Shown here piece by piece: positions 3,888 to 17,437 of a stretch of 24,519 nucleotides of DNA. A model generated the notes under the pieces. It had not been told where the DNA came from. It did no database searches and was given only the letters and a program-made list of their open reading frames with translations. The first letter of the stretch is position 1. Each line of letters begins with the position of its first letter. The DNA comes from an uncultured virus (IMG/VR IMGVR_UViG_3300047322_001016) (lineage: Duplodnaviria > Heunggongvirae > Uroviricota > Caudoviricetes): the IMG/VR virus record IMGVR_UViG_3300047322_001016; one strand, written 5' to 3'. The position numbers and the translations under genes were made by a program.

Positions 3888-4109
3888 CTACGCTGATCCG
3901 TCGCCGGATGCAACCACCCTGTTGAAGATGGTCTGCACGAAGCGGGAGCCGTCCTCGACCGTGAGCCGCGTTCGCTCCGGGTCAACCTCCCAGGAGACCA
4001 CCAGTCCCTCGAACACCGTGCGGTAGCGCTTGCGGAACAGCGTCCGCCACGAACGGCCCTCTTCCAGCTGCACCCGACACGGGCGCCCGAGATCCTCGTG
4101 GCCGATCAT
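3888..4109 (-). CDS. Hypothetical protein (73 aa)
   Basis: ATGA-coupled ORF, beta-rich. Confidence 0.6.
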   Translation of the reverse strand: MIGHEDLGRPCRVQLEEGRSWRTLFRKRYRTVFEGLVVSWEVDPERTRLTVEDGSRFVQTIFNRVVASGDGSA

Positions 4110-4198
4110 CGCAGAGCCGCCACGACGAAAACGACGGCCAACACGACCGCCACCACCACGAAGCCGTAGCTGACGTTCCGACGCAGGCGAGGGAACAT
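4106..4198 (-). CDS. Small single-pass membrane peptide (30 aa)
   Basis: MFPRLRRNVSYGFVVVAVVLAVVFVVAALR; overlaps both neighbours. Confidence 0.5.
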   Translation of the reverse strand: MFPRLRRNVSYGFVVVAVVLAVVFVVAALR

Positions 4199-4549
4199 CA
4201 AAACGGAATGTCCTCGGTCAGGTTCTTGTGGGCGCGGCCGACCGCGATCGCCAACCCAAGCCTCCGGTCGAACCGCTCGTCCGGGCGGCAGTCGGCGTGG
4301 CCGCGGGCAAGCACAGCGTCGTTGCCGTCGCAGATCTCGACGTGCGTCGAGCCGCCGTTCGGCTCCGGCGGAAGCCGCCGCCCGACCTCGGCCAGCATCG
4401 CGACATACTCGCTGCCGAGGGGCATGACTCGAGAACCTCTTCAGATCCTCCAGTGTCGCCGCATGCTGCCGCGGCCGGTAATGATGGATCCGCACCTTGT
4501 ATCCGCCCGCCCTGAGTTCTTCCAGGGTTTTTTCGCACAGAGTCGCCAT
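4198..4549 (-). pseudogene. Phage hypothetical protein split by a +1 frameshift near 4425-4440
   Basis: N-half (strong RBS; TLEELRAGGYKVRIHHYR) and C-half (GGSTHVEI...G.A.C...D.FDRRLGLAIAVGRA) look like two halves of one common phage protein. Confidence 0.55.
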
Positions 4550-8850: not shown

Positions 8851-10310
8851 CAGACCTTCACCGGCTTGAGCGTCCTGTAGCTGGACGGCCCTTCCCCGAC
8901 GATCGTGACGGGAACGTTCCCGGCCGCCTGAATCACGTTCACGATGTCATACGGAACCTCACGTGGTTCCTGCGTCAGCTCGATCTCGCCGACGTTCGGG
9001 TAGCAGTCGAACAGACGCCGTGTGACGCACTCCATGTGCGAAATGTCGCCGCCCTTGATCCCTGTGACCTCGCCGCTCTCTCCCGTCGATAGATAGCGGC
9101 CGATGCCGTCGTCGCCGAAGTACTCGTACGACTCCACAACAGGCCACGCATCTCCTGAGAAAGCATCCAGGTGCGTCACCGCGATCGAGTCGGGACGGGT
9201 GCGCCCGACCGCATAGCGGAACGCGACCGCGTCGAACGGTGACCTGCGGAACTCGCCCGCCGTGCCGAACTCGTATTTCGGATGAATCTCGCGCTCGTTG
9301 GGCGCGTTGTGCGGCTCTTCCCACCAAAGCCTGTTCCCCTTCGCCGCGAAGTCGCGACTCTCATACGGACGCCTTCGGTTAGCGTCCGACGGGAACGGCC
9401 CCGCCCCGTGCCTGGTCGTGTACGAACGAACAACCCCGACCGTCTCCACATCAGTGGAGTCCAGGCCGGCGATCATCAGCTCGCTCCGCGCTGGCCCTGG
9501 CGTCACGTCCGACCATGTCGTGTGCGGATGGAACCCGACGGCCTCATCGAGCAGCACACCCTGCGACCCTTCCAGCACAACCGTTCCGGAATTCCGGAGC
9601 AGGTTCGACAGATGCACGTTGTCGACCAGTCTTGTCCTGGCCGCCCACTCCGCGTATCTGTCCACCCACGCTTCCACCGAAGCAGGCTTCTCCCCGTAAA
9701 GCAACAGGCGCGCGGCCTCGAGCCTGTCCGACCAGTTCGCGGTGTCGTCAGGGGGATGCTGATGGTCAACCCACCGATCCTGCTCCACACCGTAAAAAGC
9801 GATCAGCTTTTCCAGCCGCTTCCTGGTGGTCTGCTTGTCGGCGAGCTCGCCTGCGTGCAGCATCAGGCCGCCTTCTCCGATCACACGCCGCGTCTCGCCG
9901 ATCCCTTTCCCTGTGGTGCCGTGGGCCCTGCCGCGACGGTAGTACTCTTTCAGCAGGTTCGCGGCCTCATGGACGGGTGTCGTCACCAAACACCCTTTGT
10001 TGACCGACAGACGATCCCAAACGTCGGTTTCGCCGAGCGTCGCCAAATGGTAGTACTCGTTGAACATGTCGAGCGGGTTGATCATCATGTCCCGCCCCAG
10101 GTAGGTGTCGGCACCCGCGAACGTGCCCGACCCGAACTGCGCGAACGTGTGATGGCGCCCGTCGGGCGCGATCACATTGTGGGCGGCCTGTGCGCCGCCG
10201 CTGAACCTCATCACCGTGTGAGCCCCATGCTCCCGCGTCAGGTGTTCGACGACCTGGCCCTTGCCTTCGTCTCCGTACAGCAACCCTATAACGATGAACG
10301 CCTTGCTCAT
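8850..10310 (-). CDS. purA: Divergent adenylosuccinate synthetase family protein
   Basis: GDEGKG P-loop, RFSGGAQAAH, GTTGKGIG, EGSQGVLLD, YTTRHGAGPFPS, THLD, C-terminal GP. Confidence 0.9.
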   Translation of the reverse strand: MSKAFIVIGLLYGDEGKGQVVEHLTREHGAHTVMRFSGGAQAAHNVIAPDGRHHTFAQFGSGTFAGADTYLGRDMMINPLDMFNEYYHLATLGETDVWDRLSVNKGCLVTTPVHEAANLLKEYYRRGRAHGTTGKGIGETRRVIGEGGLMLHAGELADKQTTRKRLEKLIAFYGVEQDRWVDHQHPPDDTANWSDRLEAARLLLYGEKPASVEAWVDRYAEWAARTRLVDNVHLSNLLRNSGTVVLEGSQGVLLDEAVGFHPHTTWSDVTPGPARSELMIAGLDSTDVETVGVVRSYTTRHGAGPFPSDANRRRPYESRDFAAKGNRLWWEEPHNAPNEREIHPKYEFGTAGEFRRSPFDAVAFRYAVGRTRPDSIAVTHLDAFSGDAWPVVESYEYFGDDGIGRYLSTGESGEVTGIKGGDISHMECVTRRLFDCYPNVGEIELTQEPREVPYDIVNVIQAAGNVPVTIVGEGPSSYRTLKPVKV

Positions 10311-10361: not shown

Positions 10362-11072
10362 TTACTTGAACACGATCGGACTGCCGACAGTCACGACCTT
10401 GAACGCCAACTTCGTGCCGTTGTTGCAGTCCGGCGCCGCACCCGTGCCTCCGTCGGCCATTCCATGGCCGGTGCCGCCATCCTCGCAGAGCCACCGCGTC
10501 CCGTCACCTAGTCCGGCGGGGCCGGGAGGTCCCTGCGCTCCCGTAGCACCAGTGAGTCCGACCGAACCAGCCGGGCCAGGTGCGCCCGTGTCGCCCTTCG
10601 CTCCGCTCGCACCAGTAGCTCCCGTATCACCCTTCGGTCCGCTCGGTCCAGCCGGGCCTGGATCTCCCTTCGGGCCCGCAGGGCCTGTCGTGCCTCCTGC
10701 CGCGGATCCGGCGGGGCCGGGAGGTCCGGCTGGGCCCGCTGGGCCCGCTGGGCCGACCGCACCCTTCGCTCCTGCAGGACCTGCGGGACCTGGTGCACCT
10801 TTGTCTCCCTTCGGGCCCTTCTGGCCTGCGCAATAAACATCAGGCTTGAGCGGCGTCAGCGTCCTACACGGAATCGCAACGCCGACCTTCCGAGTCTCAC
10901 CCGCAAGACACTTCTGGTACGGGATCTCCGCGATCGCGCGGACGACCCCGGTGTGGTTGTCGATGCAGAACGGGCCTGCGAGACGCCGGCCATGGTCTGC
11001 CGAAGCTGGAACCGCGATCACCGCAATCGTTGCGAGCGCGGTGACCACGATCAGCCAGAGATACTTCTTCAT
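10362..11072 (-). CDS. Secreted collagen-like protein
   Basis: Signal peptide MKK-hydrophobic-ASA; ~35 Gly-X-Y triplets in two blocks; Cys-containing flanking domains. Confidence 0.9.
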
Positions 11073-12308: not shown

Positions 12309-12414
12309 AGTTACCACCTTCCCTTCGTTGTTTTGCCACTTGCGTGGCTTCGGGATCTGAGTCCCAGGCGGCCGATCGGGAACGCCACCTTATGACTCAA
12401 ATGTATCAAACTAA

Positions 12415-12507
12415 GCCTGCCAGACCGCGCCGCGCGTTGCCCTGCCATACCGGGCCCGGCCCCGACTGCCGTGCCATGCCACGCCTTGCCACGCCTAGAC
12501 CTGACGC
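12415..12507 (-). repeat. Mini (NN-GGY)n pentamer array, 17 units in 2 segments; putative guide RNA
   Basis: Plus-strand parse: gcct|gccag accgc gccgc gcgtt gccct gccat accgg gcccg gcccc|gact|gccgt gccat gccac gcctt gccac gccta gacct gacgc. Confidence 0.9.
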
Positions 12508-12510
12508 GCA

Positions 12511-12927
12511 TCAGTTTGCGATGTCGGCTCCAACCATCGCCAGGAACTCTTCGAACTCCTTGTATCGGTCGAACAGCTGCTTCCACTCCCGCTCCATAGA
12601 GATCAGAAGCAGCTTCCGAGTGAAATCGTCCTCGGCGATCCGCTCCACCGGTTCGTAGACGAACCCTTCGTCGGTCTGGATCGCGTGGAACGCCCTGACG
12701 CTTCTCTGCGGCCCGTTCTCGTCTGCTTCCTTGTAGACGATCTTGACGCTCGAGATCAGCTCGTGAGCACGATGTCTGTACCACGCTTCCGCCGCGTCCT
12801 TCACGTTGCGGTCGAACACAAACGCGTGAAGCGGATGGCTCTTCGGACGAGCCGCCTGCACGACCAACTCAGGCGTCAGCTTCCCGTTGGCGGCGTAGAT
12901 CGCCTGAAGCTCTTCCCGTAGGCTCAC
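12511..12927 (-). CDS. Accessory protein coupled to the Cas7-like gene (138 aa)
   Basis: GTGA overlap with the Cas7-like stop; G.LTPE.VV..AR...HPLH..F....AA motif. Confidence 0.85.
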   Translation of the reverse strand: MSLREELQAIYAANGKLTPELVVQAARPKSHPLHAFVFDRNVKDAAEAWYRHRAHELISSVKIVYKEADENGPQRSVRAFHAIQTDEGFVYEPVERIAEDDFTRKLLLISMEREWKQLFDRYKEFEEFLAMVGADIAN

Positions 12928-13595
12928 CCGATGACCTCGACTTCCTTGTCCGGGTCGACGCAGTACGTGCCGAACTCGCCGCCCTTCTCCGGCCTCCACT
13001 CTCCCACTCCGACGCCCATCCCGCCGGCGTCGATGAGAGCAAGAACCGACTCTCGGGTGAGAGCCGAGATCGGGTAGGTGACGGTCAGGCTCGTCTTCCA
13101 CTGCAGGAACTGCGGGCGGTACCGAAGATCGGTGCCGCCACGCGCGACCCTCACGACGTCCTCGCGCATGTTCGGCTCACCGTCGACCGGAACCATCATC
13201 CGCCCGTCGTTCCCGATCTCGCCCAGGAACCACAGGAACGACTTGATCTCCGTCATCTTGACGGCGTGGTAGAACCGGGCACCACCGACAGTGGCGTCCT
13301 TGAACGCGCCGGCGATCATCCCCGGCCGTCCGTCGTTCATCCGATAGAACGCGGCCTCGTACTCTGCTTCCGGGTCCTTCGCCTTCTTCGGCGACTTGCG
13401 GCCCTGCATGTTGTCGAGCATCTGCTTCTTCGCCTTCTCCGAGAACCGATGAACGATCAGCGGCGTGATCCCGAGGATCGGAACGATCAGCGTCTCCCGA
13501 GCGATCCGCTCGATGTGAAGCTCCGCACCGCCCGTGTCGGGTGCGTCCGTCGTTGCGCTCGAACCGTTGGATGCTGCAGCCTTCTTCGTTGCCAT
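12924..13595 (-). CDS. Stand-alone Cas7/RAMP-like protein (223 aa); putative effector of the pentamer-array RNA
   Basis: AAAGGAG RBS before ATG 13595. RAMP-like motifs: GITPLIVH (strand 1), GRPGMIAGAFKDA (cf. IPGSSLKG), thumb hairpin REDVVRV...DLRYRPQF, C-terminal G-rich loop GVGVGEWRPEKGGEFG. Confidence 0.8.
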   Translation of the reverse strand: MATKKAAASNGSSATTDAPDTGGAELHIERIARETLIVPILGITPLIVHRFSEKAKKQMLDNMQGRKSPKKAKDPEAEYEAAFYRMNDGRPGMIAGAFKDATVGGARFYHAVKMTEIKSFLWFLGEIGNDGRMMVPVDGEPNMREDVVRVARGGTDLRYRPQFLQWKTSLTVTYPISALTRESVLALIDAGGMGVGVGEWRPEKGGEFGTYCVDPDKEVEVIG

Positions 13596-13631
13596 GATCT
13601 TTTCTCCTTTGCTTGTGTTACGGGATGAACA

Positions 13632-14626
13632 ACCTTGCCTGCCAAGCCGGGCCGTGCCCAGCCTCGCCCCGCCTAGACACGCCCCGCCTAGCCGTGCCTG
13701 CCTGCCGTGCCACGCCCGACCTAGCCATACCGTGACGCGCCGTGCCGAGCCATGACGGGCCGTGCCTGCCACGCCTGACCATGCCGCGCCATGCCGGACC
13801 CAGACCTGCCGCGCCGAGCCTAGACTGCCGAGCCGTGCCGCGCCAGACCTTGCCGGGCAACGCCGAGCCGAGCCACGCCGTGCCATGACTGCCATGCCGA
13901 GCCACACCGTGCCGATGCCAGGCCCTGACTTGCCGAGCCAAGCCGCGCCGATCCTGCCAAGCCAAGCCGTGCCCGGATCCGCCGAGCCCTGCCGTGCCGA
14001 GCCATACCGAGACCCGCCTAGCCGGGACTGCCAGGCCATGCCATACCGTGCCCGGACGCGCCAAGCCCCGCCCCGCCACGCCTGCCGAGCCCTGCCACGC
14101 CCAGCCGTGCCAAGCCAAGTCTGGCCGTGCCCTGCCGAGACGGGCCGTGACGCGCCGCGCCTTGCCTGCCATGCCGAGCCATGCCGTGACCTGCCCCGAC
14201 ACACCGGGCCAAGCCTGCCTTGCCGTGCCCTACCTGGCCCCGCCACGCCTAACCTCTTCCCGCCATGCCTGGCCTCGCCTGCCCAGCCGCGCCAAGCCGT
14301 GCCGCGCCCTGCCATGTCGAGACGAGCCTTGCCTTGCCTGCCACGCCCTGTCACGCCGAGCCCTGCCCGACCAAGTTCTGCCATGCCGCGCGTTGCCATG
14401 CCTGTCTTGCCACGCCGTGCCTGGCCGCACCGTGCCGCGCCTAGCCACACCAGCCGTGCCATGCCCCAACTCGCCGGGCCATGCCTGCCTTGCCTGGCCG
14501 TGCCATGCCGTGCCCGACCGCGCCTGGACACGCCGCGCCCAGTCTCGCCCAGCCACGCCGAGCCGCGCCTTGCCTGCCGGGCCACGCCGGGACTCGCCCG
14601 GCCAGACCTTGCCCCGCCATGCCACG
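13632..14626 (-). repeat. Large (NN-GGY)n pentamer array, ~184 units in 16 segments; putative multi-guide non-coding RNA
   Basis: Strict 5-nt periodicity gccNN (variants acc, gac, gtc) on the plus strand, punctuated by 4-nt units (mostly gcct) every 6-17 pentamers. Confidence 0.95.
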
Positions 14627-15706
14627 CTACCTGTCTCCAGGCATTTTGAACTCTCGAAACTTCCGTCGTCCCCAAAGCCGTTCGATTAGATCGTCAAAAG
14701 ACCGTAGTGCGCTGATTGTGTCACTGGGACGCATCGATGCTTGGGGGATTACGCAGGCTCGAAAATGAGCCCTGATTGCCCGAGGGATAGGATCTCTCAA
14801 TTTCCCGAGCACGGGGTCGCCGCCCAACACTCGCACCATGCTTTTCGCCGCGATGAAGATGTCCGTCGCCGGCGTAGACGGCTGCTTCTCAAGGACTTCG
14901 TCGGGATACCAGTCGCGGTACCTGGGGATGATCGCGACCGGCTTCGTGCCGGCCTCGGCGGAGTAGCACCAGTCGATCAGCACCACGCCGTGTTCGGGCG
15001 GCAGGATCATGATGTTGTCGGGGAACGGCGCATGATGAACGATGCCGGCGTCGTGTGCGAGCGACAGCGCGGTGAGTATGCGCCGCCACATCCACGCCAT
15101 GTCTTTCGCGTCGATGCCGTTCGGGTAGGCCCTCGCCACGTCGGCGAGCGTCACCCACTGGCCGCTGTCCCCGGGCCTGTTGGCCGGCAACGCGTCGAAC
15201 ACGTTGGCTTGCCTTTCGACTCTGCTCGAGTCCTTCACCCTGAGTGCGTCAGTCAGCCGCGGCAGGAACACATGCTTGCTCTCATGGGCTTCGCGGCGGA
15301 TCTTCTTGATCGCCGTCACTTCGCGTCGCATCAGGTCGCCGTCCCTGGGTGACCTGGCGATCTTGATGATGCCGCCGTCGCTCGAGTAGATGTCGGCGAT
15401 GTCGCCCCGCTCGAGCTTGGCGCCGAGCAGATACTTCTTCTTCTTCGACGTCACCGTCAAACCAGCGAGACCAGGATCGTCCCATGTTCCGTTGTCGAAC
15501 AGCTCACGGGCGATCCGCCACATCGCGCTCAACTGGATGAACTGTTCCGTCGCCGCCGCGACCTGCTCGGATGTGGCTTCCTTCGGGAGTCGGTCGGGGT
15601 GGCTTTCGCGGACGAGTTCGCGGTAGATGTGTTGTGCTTCCTCGAACGTGGCGTTCTCGCCGCCGAACATGTCCTGCGGCCGCGCGGCTTTCGCGACTGC
15701 GCTCAC
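14627..15706 (-). CDS. J-domain (HPD) plus Ser/Thr protein kinase-like fusion
   Basis: YRELVRESHPDR; GDIADIY, IIKIAR, L..E, IVHHAPFPDN, LIDWCYS, YPDE, TDIF. Confidence 0.85.
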   Translation of the reverse strand: MSAVAKAARPQDMFGGENATFEEAQHIYRELVRESHPDRLPKEATSEQVAAATEQFIQLSAMWRIARELFDNGTWDDPGLAGLTVTSKKKKYLLGAKLERGDIADIYSSDGGIIKIARSPRDGDLMRREVTAIKKIRREAHESKHVFLPRLTDALRVKDSSRVERQANVFDALPANRPGDSGQWVTLADVARAYPNGIDAKDMAWMWRRILTALSLAHDAGIVHHAPFPDNIMILPPEHGVVLIDWCYSAEAGTKPVAIIPRYRDWYPDEVLEKQPSTPATDIFIAAKSMVRVLGGDPVLGKLRDPIPRAIRAHFRACVIPQASMRPSDTISALRSFDDLIERLWGRRKFREFKMPGDR

Positions 15707-15903
15707 GATCCACTCCGGAATTCCGGAGAGACGACCTTCTCTAGTGTGAGAACGATGATGTCGGGTCGCCCTCCGACCACCTGAACGTCAGCCACGGTGA
15801 ATTGTGTGCCGTCCGCGATGACGGCGACCACGGGAAGGATTTCTCCTTCTTCGATCTCCATCAGTTGGTCGACGAGATCTCCGCCGTCCATTACTGCTCC
15901 CAT
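15703..15903 (-). CDS. Hypothetical protein (66 aa)
   Basis: Fills the gap between rtcB and the kinase; GTGA-coupled to the kinase. Confidence 0.6.
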   Translation of the reverse strand: MGAVMDGGDLVDQLMEIEEGEILPVVAVIADGTQFTVADVQVVGGRPDIIVLTLEKVVSPEFRSGS

Positions 15904-15905
15904 CG

Positions 15906-17246
15906 TCAGTCCTTCCACGGGTCATGGACGTCGGCTCCTGCCATCACGACGCCGACGGGACGCAGCATGTGCACGACCTCGATGTTCGAGTGCTGCCCGA
16001 GCACCGTCGCCAAATCCTTGTAGGCGGCTGGTGCTTCGTCGGCCGCGGCGCCGACGACGATGATGCCGCGCTCCCGCAGCTCCTGCTTCACCGTCGGCCA
16101 GTCGATCAGCCCTTCGCTGACCTTCTCTTCCGTCCAGAACTTCCGCAGCACGGTGCCGTGCTCGGGGCAGTAGTCGCCGTCTTTGTGTTCGCGCGCGGGC
16201 TGCGTGTAGTGGCAGTTCCGTTCGCCGCACCCGTACATCTTGCGCTTCTTCACCTTCCCTGCCGCCTTGGTGCGTGACATGGCGCGTCCTGCTCCGTGCG
16301 GCGCCGAGCCGATCGCCCCGATGTCATCTACTGCTGTCGCGGGTGGCGGCAGCGGCTGACCTGTCCATCCGCCGCCGATCTTGCCGCGAACGATGACCGA
16401 CATGTCGCCCATCGAGCCGCCGATGAACGCAGGATCACGCGTGAGCGGCGTCGCGCCTTTCCGCACGACAACCTTGCCGTTCTCGAGCCACGCGTAGTTG
16501 TGATGGTTGTGGACGCTCGACACCGGCAACGCACCCAGGATGTCGAGGACCTGGCTCATCACGTAGTCGCGTCCCGCATACGCGTATGCGCCGGCGAGCT
16601 CCATGCACTCCCAGTAGAACGCGCCGATCTCGCTGTCGAGGTTGAACACGGTCGGCTCTTCCCTGTCCTGGGCGCCGTCGCCGAACGCACGGTTCGCCGC
16701 GAGGTTCAGGAAGCCTTTCGCGATCGTGTGTCCGAACCCGCGGGAGCCGAAGTGGTTCGCGACCCACAGCCACCCGTTTTCGTCGACGAGAAGGTCGACG
16801 TAGTGGTTCCCGGCGCCGACGGTGCCGAGCTGCCGTTCGGCTTTCTGCTTCAGGCCTGGCGAGCGCTTCTCGATGTCGGGCCACAGGTGGCTGTCGAACA
16901 AAGGATGGTCGACTTTCTCTTGTTCGTTGGAGCGGCCCATTCCGAACGAGATCCGCTCGTTGATCTCGGCCAGTAGCGGCTGGACTTCGCGTTCCACGTC
17001 GGCGAACCGCAGGTTCGTCTTCACGGCCTTGTTGCCGCAGCCGATGTCGTAGCCGACACCAGACGGCGACACGGCGTTGTCGTAAGCGACGACGCCGCCG
17101 ATCGGCATCGAATACCCGACGTGCCCGTCGGCGCACAGAGCGGCCGCCACAGCCCGTTCGTCCGCGGCGACCATGTTGAGCTGGTCGATCGTCTTCTGGT
17201 CGTGATCACCGAAGACCGTGACCGGCTTCGTTGCAGTGTCAGTCAT
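15906..17246 (-). CDS. rtcB: RtcB family RNA ligase (3'-P/2',3'-cyclic-P to 5'-OH)
   Basis: D.H.GY..PIGG, GYDIGCG, QLGT.G.GNHY, H.GSRGFG, HNY, RKGATP, GSMG, SAPHGAGRAMSR, DEAPAAYK; ATG at 17246. Confidence 0.95.
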   Translation of the reverse strand: MTDTATKPVTVFGDHDQKTIDQLNMVAADERAVAAALCADGHVGYSMPIGGVVAYDNAVSPSGVGYDIGCGNKAVKTNLRFADVEREVQPLLAEINERISFGMGRSNEQEKVDHPLFDSHLWPDIEKRSPGLKQKAERQLGTVGAGNHYVDLLVDENGWLWVANHFGSRGFGHTIAKGFLNLAANRAFGDGAQDREEPTVFNLDSEIGAFYWECMELAGAYAYAGRDYVMSQVLDILGALPVSSVHNHHNYAWLENGKVVVRKGATPLTRDPAFIGGSMGDMSVIVRGKIGGGWTGQPLPPPATAVDDIGAIGSAPHGAGRAMSRTKAAGKVKKRKMYGCGERNCHYTQPAREHKDGDYCPEHGTVLRKFWTEEKVSEGLIDWPTVKQELRERGIIVVGAAADEAPAAYKDLATVLGQHSNIEVVHMLRPVGVVMAGADVHDPWKD

Positions 17247-17437
17247 CCTCTCCCTTTCTTTGTTCGTTCTTCGTGGATCACGTCGCACCGCTCAGCGAGC
17301 ACAGTCGCGGCCGCCCCGAGTTGGACGAGTTCGGCGGGCAGGAAGTGGACGCGGAGGTATTCGTCGACGGCGTAGGCGCCTGTGTCGGCTTCGGCGTCTT
17401 CTGCGGCGATCAGCAGCGCTTCTGTTTCTGTGCTCAT
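17243..17437 (-). CDS. Hypothetical protein (64 aa)
   Basis: AGGAGG RBS; ATGA-coupled to rtcB. Confidence 0.65.
   Translation of the reverse strand: MSTETEALLIAAEDAEADTGAYAVDEYLRVHFLPAELVQLGAAATVLAERCDVIHEERTKKGRG

Follow-up and report, generated by a model that had tools for sequence, protein, structure and literature searches.

The repeat region at 13641..14625 (minus strand) is very probably the staggered guide-RNA array of a phage-borne VIPR system, an assignment from sequence that also takes in the adjoining vipr gene and its vap-like partner. The region lies in a 24,519-nucleotide stretch of DNA from an uncultured tailed virus (IMG/VR record IMGVR_UViG_3300047322_001016), hereafter called the window. 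VIPR (Viral Interference Programmable Repeat), described for the first time in 2026, is an RNA-guided silencing system of phages: the phage RAMP protein Vipr polymerises along RNAs that consist of GGY+NN repeats, with 9-16 repeats to a guide, and the NN bases pair with a double-stranded DNA target, skipping every third base (bioRxiv 10.64898/2026.04.26.720920). The same preprint places most natural targets in coding sequence, where the skip falls on the wobble base, divides VIPR systems into seven types, and defines as 'staggered' those arrays whose guides overlap at 1 nt positions (fig. S18 legend). VIPR itself is thus already described; what is new is that a staggered array, large and well preserved, occurs in a lineage of soil actinophages. 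In addition, the VIPR code, in which two informative bases out of every five correspond to codon positions 1-2, was recovered from raw sequence alone.

Dynamic-programming parsing divides 13641-14625 into 184 five-base units, 143 of which start with GCC and 158 with [GA]CC; when read on the minus strand, i.e. the vipr strand, 158 of the 184 are GGY+NN. The distance from GCC to GCC within 13600-14660 is 5 bases in 105 cases, 10 bases in 25 and 15 bases in seven (137 in total), while a spacing of 4 bases occurs 11 times. Sixteen four-base units (gcct 11, gact 3, tcct 1, acca 1) cut the array, which also contains a single six-base unit, gccgat, at 13911-13916. The outcome is 17 unit-bearing segments of 4-17 units (11, 12, 11, 12, 4, 7, 14, 10, 16, 9, 12, 11, 12, 9, 6, 17 and 11), 14 of them with 9-17 units, and one empty segment, in line with the first-pass annotation, which had described a 1-kb array of 18 segments. 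That annotation had also held that no two segments are alike, and pairwise comparison agrees: the best pair is 75% identical over 6 units, and identity does not exceed 61% over 9 or more. Two consecutive four-base units at 13696..13703 (minus strand; gcct gcct on the plus strand, GGCA on the RNA strand) illustrate the register break that delimits guides: a GGCA unit every 6-17 repeats interrupts the five-base register and would thereby mark the guide ends.

Stretches of the array are found with 0 differences in four further public soil or rhizosphere runs, as contigs that give only fragmentary cover and include spurious joints from other arrays; because of these identical recurrences, the array is no assembly artefact. 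An Rfam scan of the array gave no family at E≤1, and no other conserved element lies between the guides, which abut with one four-base unit and have no invariant 3' tail of the SUSP1 type between them. A promoter scan of 12800-15900 returned no sigma-70-like sites, and none of the 24 public runs listed is registered as RNA sequencing. The window has no CRISPR-type direct repeats, and no Cas family was found among the 20 ORFs scanned with Pfam and PHROGs.

The array could in principle be translated, either as a low-complexity N-terminal extension or as a separate repeat protein. A stop-free minus frame runs through it into vipr (ORF 12924..14675, 583 aa), and genes have been annotated over the arrays of two relatives, Donkeykong gp48 and Pipp gp43. 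Such a single open frame is unremarkable, because stops arise almost only from TAGGC units. The variable bases have a GC content of 0.42-0.54 at every codon position in all minus frames (chi2 p=0.14), against a GC3 of 0.75-0.88 in the window's genes, and from this missing GC3 signal it follows that the array is non-coding. Against translation also stand the strong AGGAGA ribosome-binding site upstream of the vipr ATG at 13595, the alignment of homologues only from residue ~24 onwards, the position of the array, upstream or downstream of vipr depending on the phage, and the Brocalys record, in which the equivalent array stretch carries no annotation. On balance, we consider translation of the array almost certainly wrong. 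The two annotated genes are GenBank 'hypothetical protein' entries that lie wholly on arrays (gp48 at 3978-4364 of the Donkeykong locus L001, gp43 at 3961-4230 of the Pipp locus L002); they are probably mis-called genes over vrRNA arrays, in which case the records need correcting.

The gene next to the array, vipr (12924..13595, minus strand), encodes a 223-aa protein that phmmer against the PDB, phrog_4652 and Foldseek all point to as a RAMP-fold homologue of Vipr. Its sole PDB sequence match is chain 36pp_D, 'SUSP1 Vipr protein' (phmmer, E 2e-4), in an alignment that spans residues 156-208, the 53 C-terminal residues only, and pairs GVGEWRP with GVGDWRP and DLRYRP with VMSYRP. In SUSP1, R138, D177 and W178 are described as holding two guanines, with R179 of the G-loop contacting the pyrimidine (bioRxiv 10.64898/2026.04.26.720927). 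These residues align with R160, E199, W200 and R201 of the window protein, the only change being D to E, and all four are invariant in 36 homologues; the SUSP1 N-terminal contacts H17, K33 and R39 have no alignable counterpart. The sequence thus indicates homology to a solved Vipr with the GGY-contacting residues kept. The AF2 model (pLDDT 77, pTM 0.70) has as its top Foldseek matches the Csm3/Cas7 chains 6xn3_F and 6ifn_E (E ~1e-5, TM 0.42-0.51), the latter among the chains used as query by the discoverers of VIPR (bioRxiv 10.64898/2026.04.26.720920). At E≤0.001 there are 66 PDB chains, and among the matches listed all belong to CRISPR effector complexes (type III Csm, type VII). A glycine-rich GMGVGVGEWRPEKGGEFG lies near the C-terminus, and the predicted structure displays the elements of the RAMP fold, namely an RRM core, a glycine-rich loop and a thumb. 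Other candidate explanations of the repeat, a TRAP-like ring binder, a G-quadruplex or R-loop origin and a Chi-like decoy, were dropped given the Vipr match.

Immediately downstream, the 138-aa vap-like accessory gene (12511..12927, minus strand; phrog_15946) begins with a GTG that overlaps the vipr stop (GTGA). Its product is homologous to Gordonia phage Pipp gp44 (45% identity, E 6e-28) and to Brocalys gp46, and in the AF2 model (pLDDT 94) residues 1-99 are weakly winged-helix-like (Z 5-6; Foldseek best E 0.4). A 157-aa ORF at 12311-12784 (minus strand), which lacks a family match and overlaps the vap-like gene in a different frame, is probably spurious. A homologue of the vap-like protein with 57% identity occurs on an 864-kb Streptomyces contig (P0196), which hints that relatives of the module may reside in Streptomyces as prophages and offers a lead to host range.

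The genes neighbouring the array are all on the minus strand. On its transcriptionally upstream side lies a kinase-like gene (14630-15706, minus strand; phrog_3043, with weak Pkinase and DnaJ matches), which ends at 14627, 2 bases before the array, and follows a gene for an RtcB RNA ligase (15909-17288, minus strand); neither is kept beside vipr in the three named phages inspected. By Pfam and PHROGs the window also carries a RecT-like protein, a collagen-like tail fibre and an adenylosuccinate-synthetase homologue. The tail-fibre gene (10365-11072, minus strand; Pfam Collagen 5e-13) contains 36-base and 9-base tandem repeats at 10582-10755 (minus strand), which are ordinary there. The synthetase homologue (486 aa, 8853-10310, minus strand; phrog_1211 E 5e-64, Pfam Adenylsucc_synt 1.6e-54) falls in a family that PHROGs assigns to the PurZ-type enzymes of genomes with 2-aminoadenine (Z); should it prove a genuine PurZ, the phage may put Z in place of A in its own DNA. 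One window protein has counterparts with 46% identity in Mycobacterium phages of ~155 kb, Dandelion among them.

The module recurs in relatives. Blastn and tblastn found vipr homologues in 34 phage records, 27 from Mycobacterium phages, five from Gordonia phages, and one each from a cyanophage and a Pseudomonas phage, and an array adjoins vipr in Mycobacterium phages Donkeykong and Brocalys and in Gordonia phage Pipp. As these module relatives sit in cultivable Mycobacterium and Gordonia phages, the system is open to bench testing. In IMG/VR, 79 of 80 related loci have a same-strand period-5 GGY array near vipr, the 80th locus ending at the gene, and the vap-like gene has a tblastn match in 70 of the 80, at most 3 kb from vipr in 67. 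The commonest gene order is vipr, vap-like gene, array (47 loci), and the array-first order seen in the window occurs in five. The punctuation unit in the arrays of the 79 loci is GGCA 831 times, followed by GGCT with 56. Parsing yielded 634 related guides with a modal length of 9-10 units; none is shared with the window array, the best similarity being 72% over 9 units. Longer arrays exist in some IMG/VR relatives, at 10719-14678 of L106 (~4.0 kb), 12435-15257 of L141 (~2.8 kb) and 11152-12716 of L140 (~1.6 kb), and these could hold dozens of guides per locus.

These data also bear on whether the repeat acts as DNA, its GGC units forming a landing pad for a DNA-binding protein at a partition site, an origin or a packaging signal. 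A dense, strand-biased array with 5-bp periodicity beside a winged-helix-like gene would suit such a role. The adjoining protein, however, is a RAMP-fold homologue of a solved Vipr that binds GGY repeats as RNA; the array strand follows that of vipr in 79 of 79 array-bearing loci, a link that a duplex site does not need; and hypervariable, codon-like NN bases with in-frame terminase matches would be left without a role. We therefore regard a DNA landing pad as very unlikely and interpret the array below as a source of guide RNAs.

The first-pass annotation had read the segments as independent guides whose NN bases correspond to codon positions 1-2 and had named a protein motif for each of several of them. 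The first part, which is the published VIPR rule, stands, whereas most of the named motifs are unproven or mistaken. All decoded strings are reproduced from the plus-strand dinucleotides, the decode of 13891-13951 running across the six-base unit gccgat. The comparison of NN frequencies proposed there gives the best fit for the codon 1-2 register of the plus strand: scored against codon positions 1-2 of the phage's genes, the fit is -3.944 bits per NN; the reverse strand scores -4.127, the other registers lie between -4.33 and -4.80, and a uniform distribution gives -4.0. Pooled over all NN, the codon 1-2 register is ahead of the reverse strand by 34 bits and of the other registers by >70 bits. 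Guide by guide the picture is mixed. Composition favours the plus reading for nine guides (3, 4, 5, 7, 8, 10, 11, 13 and 14) and clearly favours the other strand for guides 12 and 18, and the sense-versus-antisense score is negative in the plus reading for 7 of 16 guides. For the segment at 14217-14276 the opposite strand fits better by 7.2 bits. Two of the motif assignments were probably read on the wrong strand, judging by composition, and of those listed one is supported.

Candidate targets of guides 3, 5, 8, 11, 17 and 18 were searched for in IMG/VR and metagenomes using gapped NN-core patterns and exact matches only. The clearest result was obtained with guide 5 (13827..13886, minus strand; 12 NN), whose plus-strand decode is D V A [RS] F G T D E T V [IM]. 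Its 10-NN core has two IMG/VR and five metagenome matches, L004 and L073 among them being apparent duplicate entries of a single contig. The core is in frame in 7 of 7, each time at DVARFGTD[ED]T within a terminase large-subunit-like ORF. In L005 and L074 the agreement extends to 24 of 24 bases, including 4 bases outside the query pattern. The contigs with guide 5 matches have a GC content of 36-53%, and none is a plausible high-GC competitor. A terminase of high GC content in which Arg is encoded by CGN would agree with guide 5 at 23/24 bases and would escape an exact-match scan.

Guide 3 (13704..13763, minus strand; 12 NN) decodes as V T R Y [IM] V A V [DE] [IM] G V and had been compared with a strand of terminase/RNase H folds, a likeness that is borne out at the motif level, with 20 of 24 bases at best. 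Its 8-NN core has 19 IMG/VR matches, about the chance number. Four of the 19 fall in ORFs of 612-622 aa, all with (R)YIVAVDIGG in frame, and these are the only long in-frame ones; the two ORFs scanned (L022 and L007) are phrog_2 terminase large subunits. The site is the start of the terminase nuclease domain, the element also matched by guide 5. Because the bases flanking guide 3 agree with its terminase matches at only 2-4 of 8 positions, which is the chance level, these matches are motif relatives and not the natural target. Relatives of the L022 match occur in phages of Bacteroides, Vibrio, Roseobacter and Escherichia. Guide 5 obeys the rule of a 1-nt skip placed on the wobble base in all seven in-frame matches, and the pattern is suggestive for guide 3, as far as sequence comparison can indicate.

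The other motifs searched fared less well. Guide 11 (14168..14212, minus strand; 9 NN) decodes as [IM][DE][IM] V L P T G [KN] and had been likened to SF2 helicase motif I. Of the 25 matches to its 8-NN core, 14 are in the codon 1-2 register with the peptide [DE][IM]VLPTG[KN], but the six host ORFs scanned comprise a ribonucleotide reductase, a terminase, a virion protein, one unnamed family and two without any family, and none is a helicase. The terminase match (L047, 66% GC) has relatives in proteobacterial and archaeal MAGs, with no Actinomycetota among them. For guide 17 (14487..14571, minus strand), at 17 NN the longest, the VRAW motif of GpA-type terminases had been suggested; its 10-NN core has 0 matches, and the seven matches to the 8-NN core, five with an in-frame stop, include none that is credible. 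Guide 18 (14576..14625, minus strand; 10-11 NN), the first in transcription order, had been assigned to VirE/VapE helicases. None of the 12 matches to its 8-NN core is in the proposed register, composition favours the other strand by 4.5 bits, and six of the 12 place the skipped base at codon position 1, as expected from the GC3 bias of high-GC genomes. Guide 8 (13956..14025, minus strand; 14 NN) has the most codon-like composition of all in the plus reading (+9.4 bits), and the motif read from it found no counterpart, its 11-NN core giving 0 IMG/VR matches.

No natural target was found for any of the guide segments to which motifs had been assigned, the exact-match scans covering the six guides named above. 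At the ≥80% NN threshold used in the VIPR papers, no target emerged for 14 of the 16 guides of at least 6 units; the two exceptions are guide 3, with 83%, and guide 11, with 94% (17/18), in each case only at motifs common to many phages. Matches of these 16 guides elsewhere in the window were no better than those of shuffled guides, which gives no sign of self-targeting, and comparison of the window guides with 74 and then 166 loci showed no convergence of several guides on one contig.

The guides of related arrays were examined in a local set of 1.74 Mb. At ≤2 mismatches, 12 real guides matched as against eight NN-shuffled ones; overall, real and shuffled guides were equal in this set, the register spread was the same at ≤3 mismatches, and no skip length stood out. 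Adjacent guides of L147 (6883-6981) match the portal motif NP[AS]SAEA[IM], one at position 15879 of L135 with 0 mismatches and one at 18910 of L144 with 2 mismatches, and the matched ORFs are phrog_104 portals of two phages that carry two variants of the motif. In two other loci, a guide matches the vipr gene of a relative in frame: 10615-10664 of L115 that of L106 (10556) with one mismatch, and 10621-10670 of L125 that of L110 (7004) with two. In each locus this is the first guide after vipr. It looks as if VIPR phages might target each other's systems, and vrRNAs aimed at other VIPR systems have been reported (bioRxiv 10.64898/2026.04.26.720920).

Combining these observations with the published mechanism, we propose that the minus strand of the array is transcribed together with vipr, with which it shares the strand. 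Each Vipr protomer would bind one GGY and present the next two bases, as the conserved residues and the fold suggest; GGY binding by Vipr protomers is reported for SUSP1 (bioRxiv 10.64898/2026.04.26.720927). Following the published rule, the NN bases of each filament would pair with a competing phage's double-stranded DNA and leave out every third base, so that the guides would be sensitive to codon positions 1-2 but blind to the wobble base. Filament binding may then block transcription, as published for SUSP1 and taken over here by analogy.

How many of the guides have the targets that their decoded peptides suggest is less certain. One possibility, to which we give limited weight, is that the region is a VIPR array in which the peptide look-alikes outside guide 5 are due to chance, the real targets perhaps lying in non-coding DNA or on the opposite strand. 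A plausible peptide can be read from any dinucleotide string; guides 17 and 18 lack a credible match, and the guide 11 motif turns up in unrelated families. The negative scores of 7 of 16 guides in the plus reading, the equality of real and shuffled guides in the small local set and the chance-level agreement of the guide 3 flanks (2-4 of 8) fit this possibility as well. It is opposed by the pooled NN composition, in which the codon 1-2 register leads the reverse strand by 34 bits and every other register by >70 bits, by the fact that the only long in-frame matches of guide 3 share the terminase structural element of guide 5, and by the published description of natural targets as mostly coding with the wobble skipped. 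For the terminase itself, the matches suggest that at least two guides, 5 and 3, are aimed at the first catalytic strand of the large-subunit nuclease.

A broader interpretation, which we put forward tentatively and consider somewhat doubtful, is that the array constitutes an 'escape-proof' exclusion library directed against codons of fixed or catalytic residues in the near-universal packaging genes of tailed phages. Synonymous changes would be invisible to the guide, and non-synonymous ones would be lethal to the target. Examples would be the strand with the first Asp of the terminase nuclease, here in two lineage variants, and the two versions of the portal motif matched by a related array. 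If the interpretation is true, adjacent guides would be variant spellings of one site and would provide broad cover against many competitors instead of a single known rival. Published VIPR targets are satellites, prophage or lysogeny regulators and other VIPR loci, and the main texts of the 2026 VIPR preprints do not name terminase or portal genes as targets; the terminase and portal matches, if confirmed, would widen the known target range. The available text of the PMC13142463 supplement PDF makes no mention of Mycobacterium, Gordonia or Actinomycetota, and among the matches listed for pentanucleotide repeats in mycobacteriophages, the literature offers only a microsatellite survey.

Compared with known systems, the window most resembles the staggered VIPR arrays. 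As in those, tandem YNNGG repeats stand beside a Vipr RAMP protein gene, guides mostly comprise 9-17 units, and each is displaced by one base from its neighbour with no spacer between; the system is likewise phage-borne, has a putative small accessory gene and uses NN that appear to correspond to positions 1-2 of target codons. Unlike most relatives, in which the array lies downstream, the window has its array upstream of vipr, with 17 guides in ~1 kb. It also differs from published staggered VIPR in belonging to a ~148-kb soil phage that shares genes with 155-kb Mycobacterium phages, and from published targets (satellites, lysogeny regulators) in that guides match a catalytic motif of the terminase. 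With the type II VIPR of Escherichia phage SUSP1 (PDB 36pp) it shares the G-loop GVG[DE]WRP, the thumb arginine, GGY+NN repeats and, plausibly, a winged-helix-like accessory protein. The SUSP1 vrRNAs, however, are separate RNAs of ~100 nt with an invariant 3' tail and a pseudoknot, whereas only a four-base unit lies between the window guides, so that by its sequence the array appears to match the staggered form and not type II, which is characterised by a structured 3' tail. The window contains neither a repeat-spacer array nor cas genes, in contrast to Cas7/Csm3 systems, and sequence identity to these proteins is only 7-14%; a VIPR guide is moreover non-contiguous, with 2 of every 5 RNA bases used, unlike the guide of class 1 CRISPR. 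What the window system has in common with Cas7/Csm3 is the RRM-based RAMP fold and a predicted filament on guide RNA with periodic base flipping.
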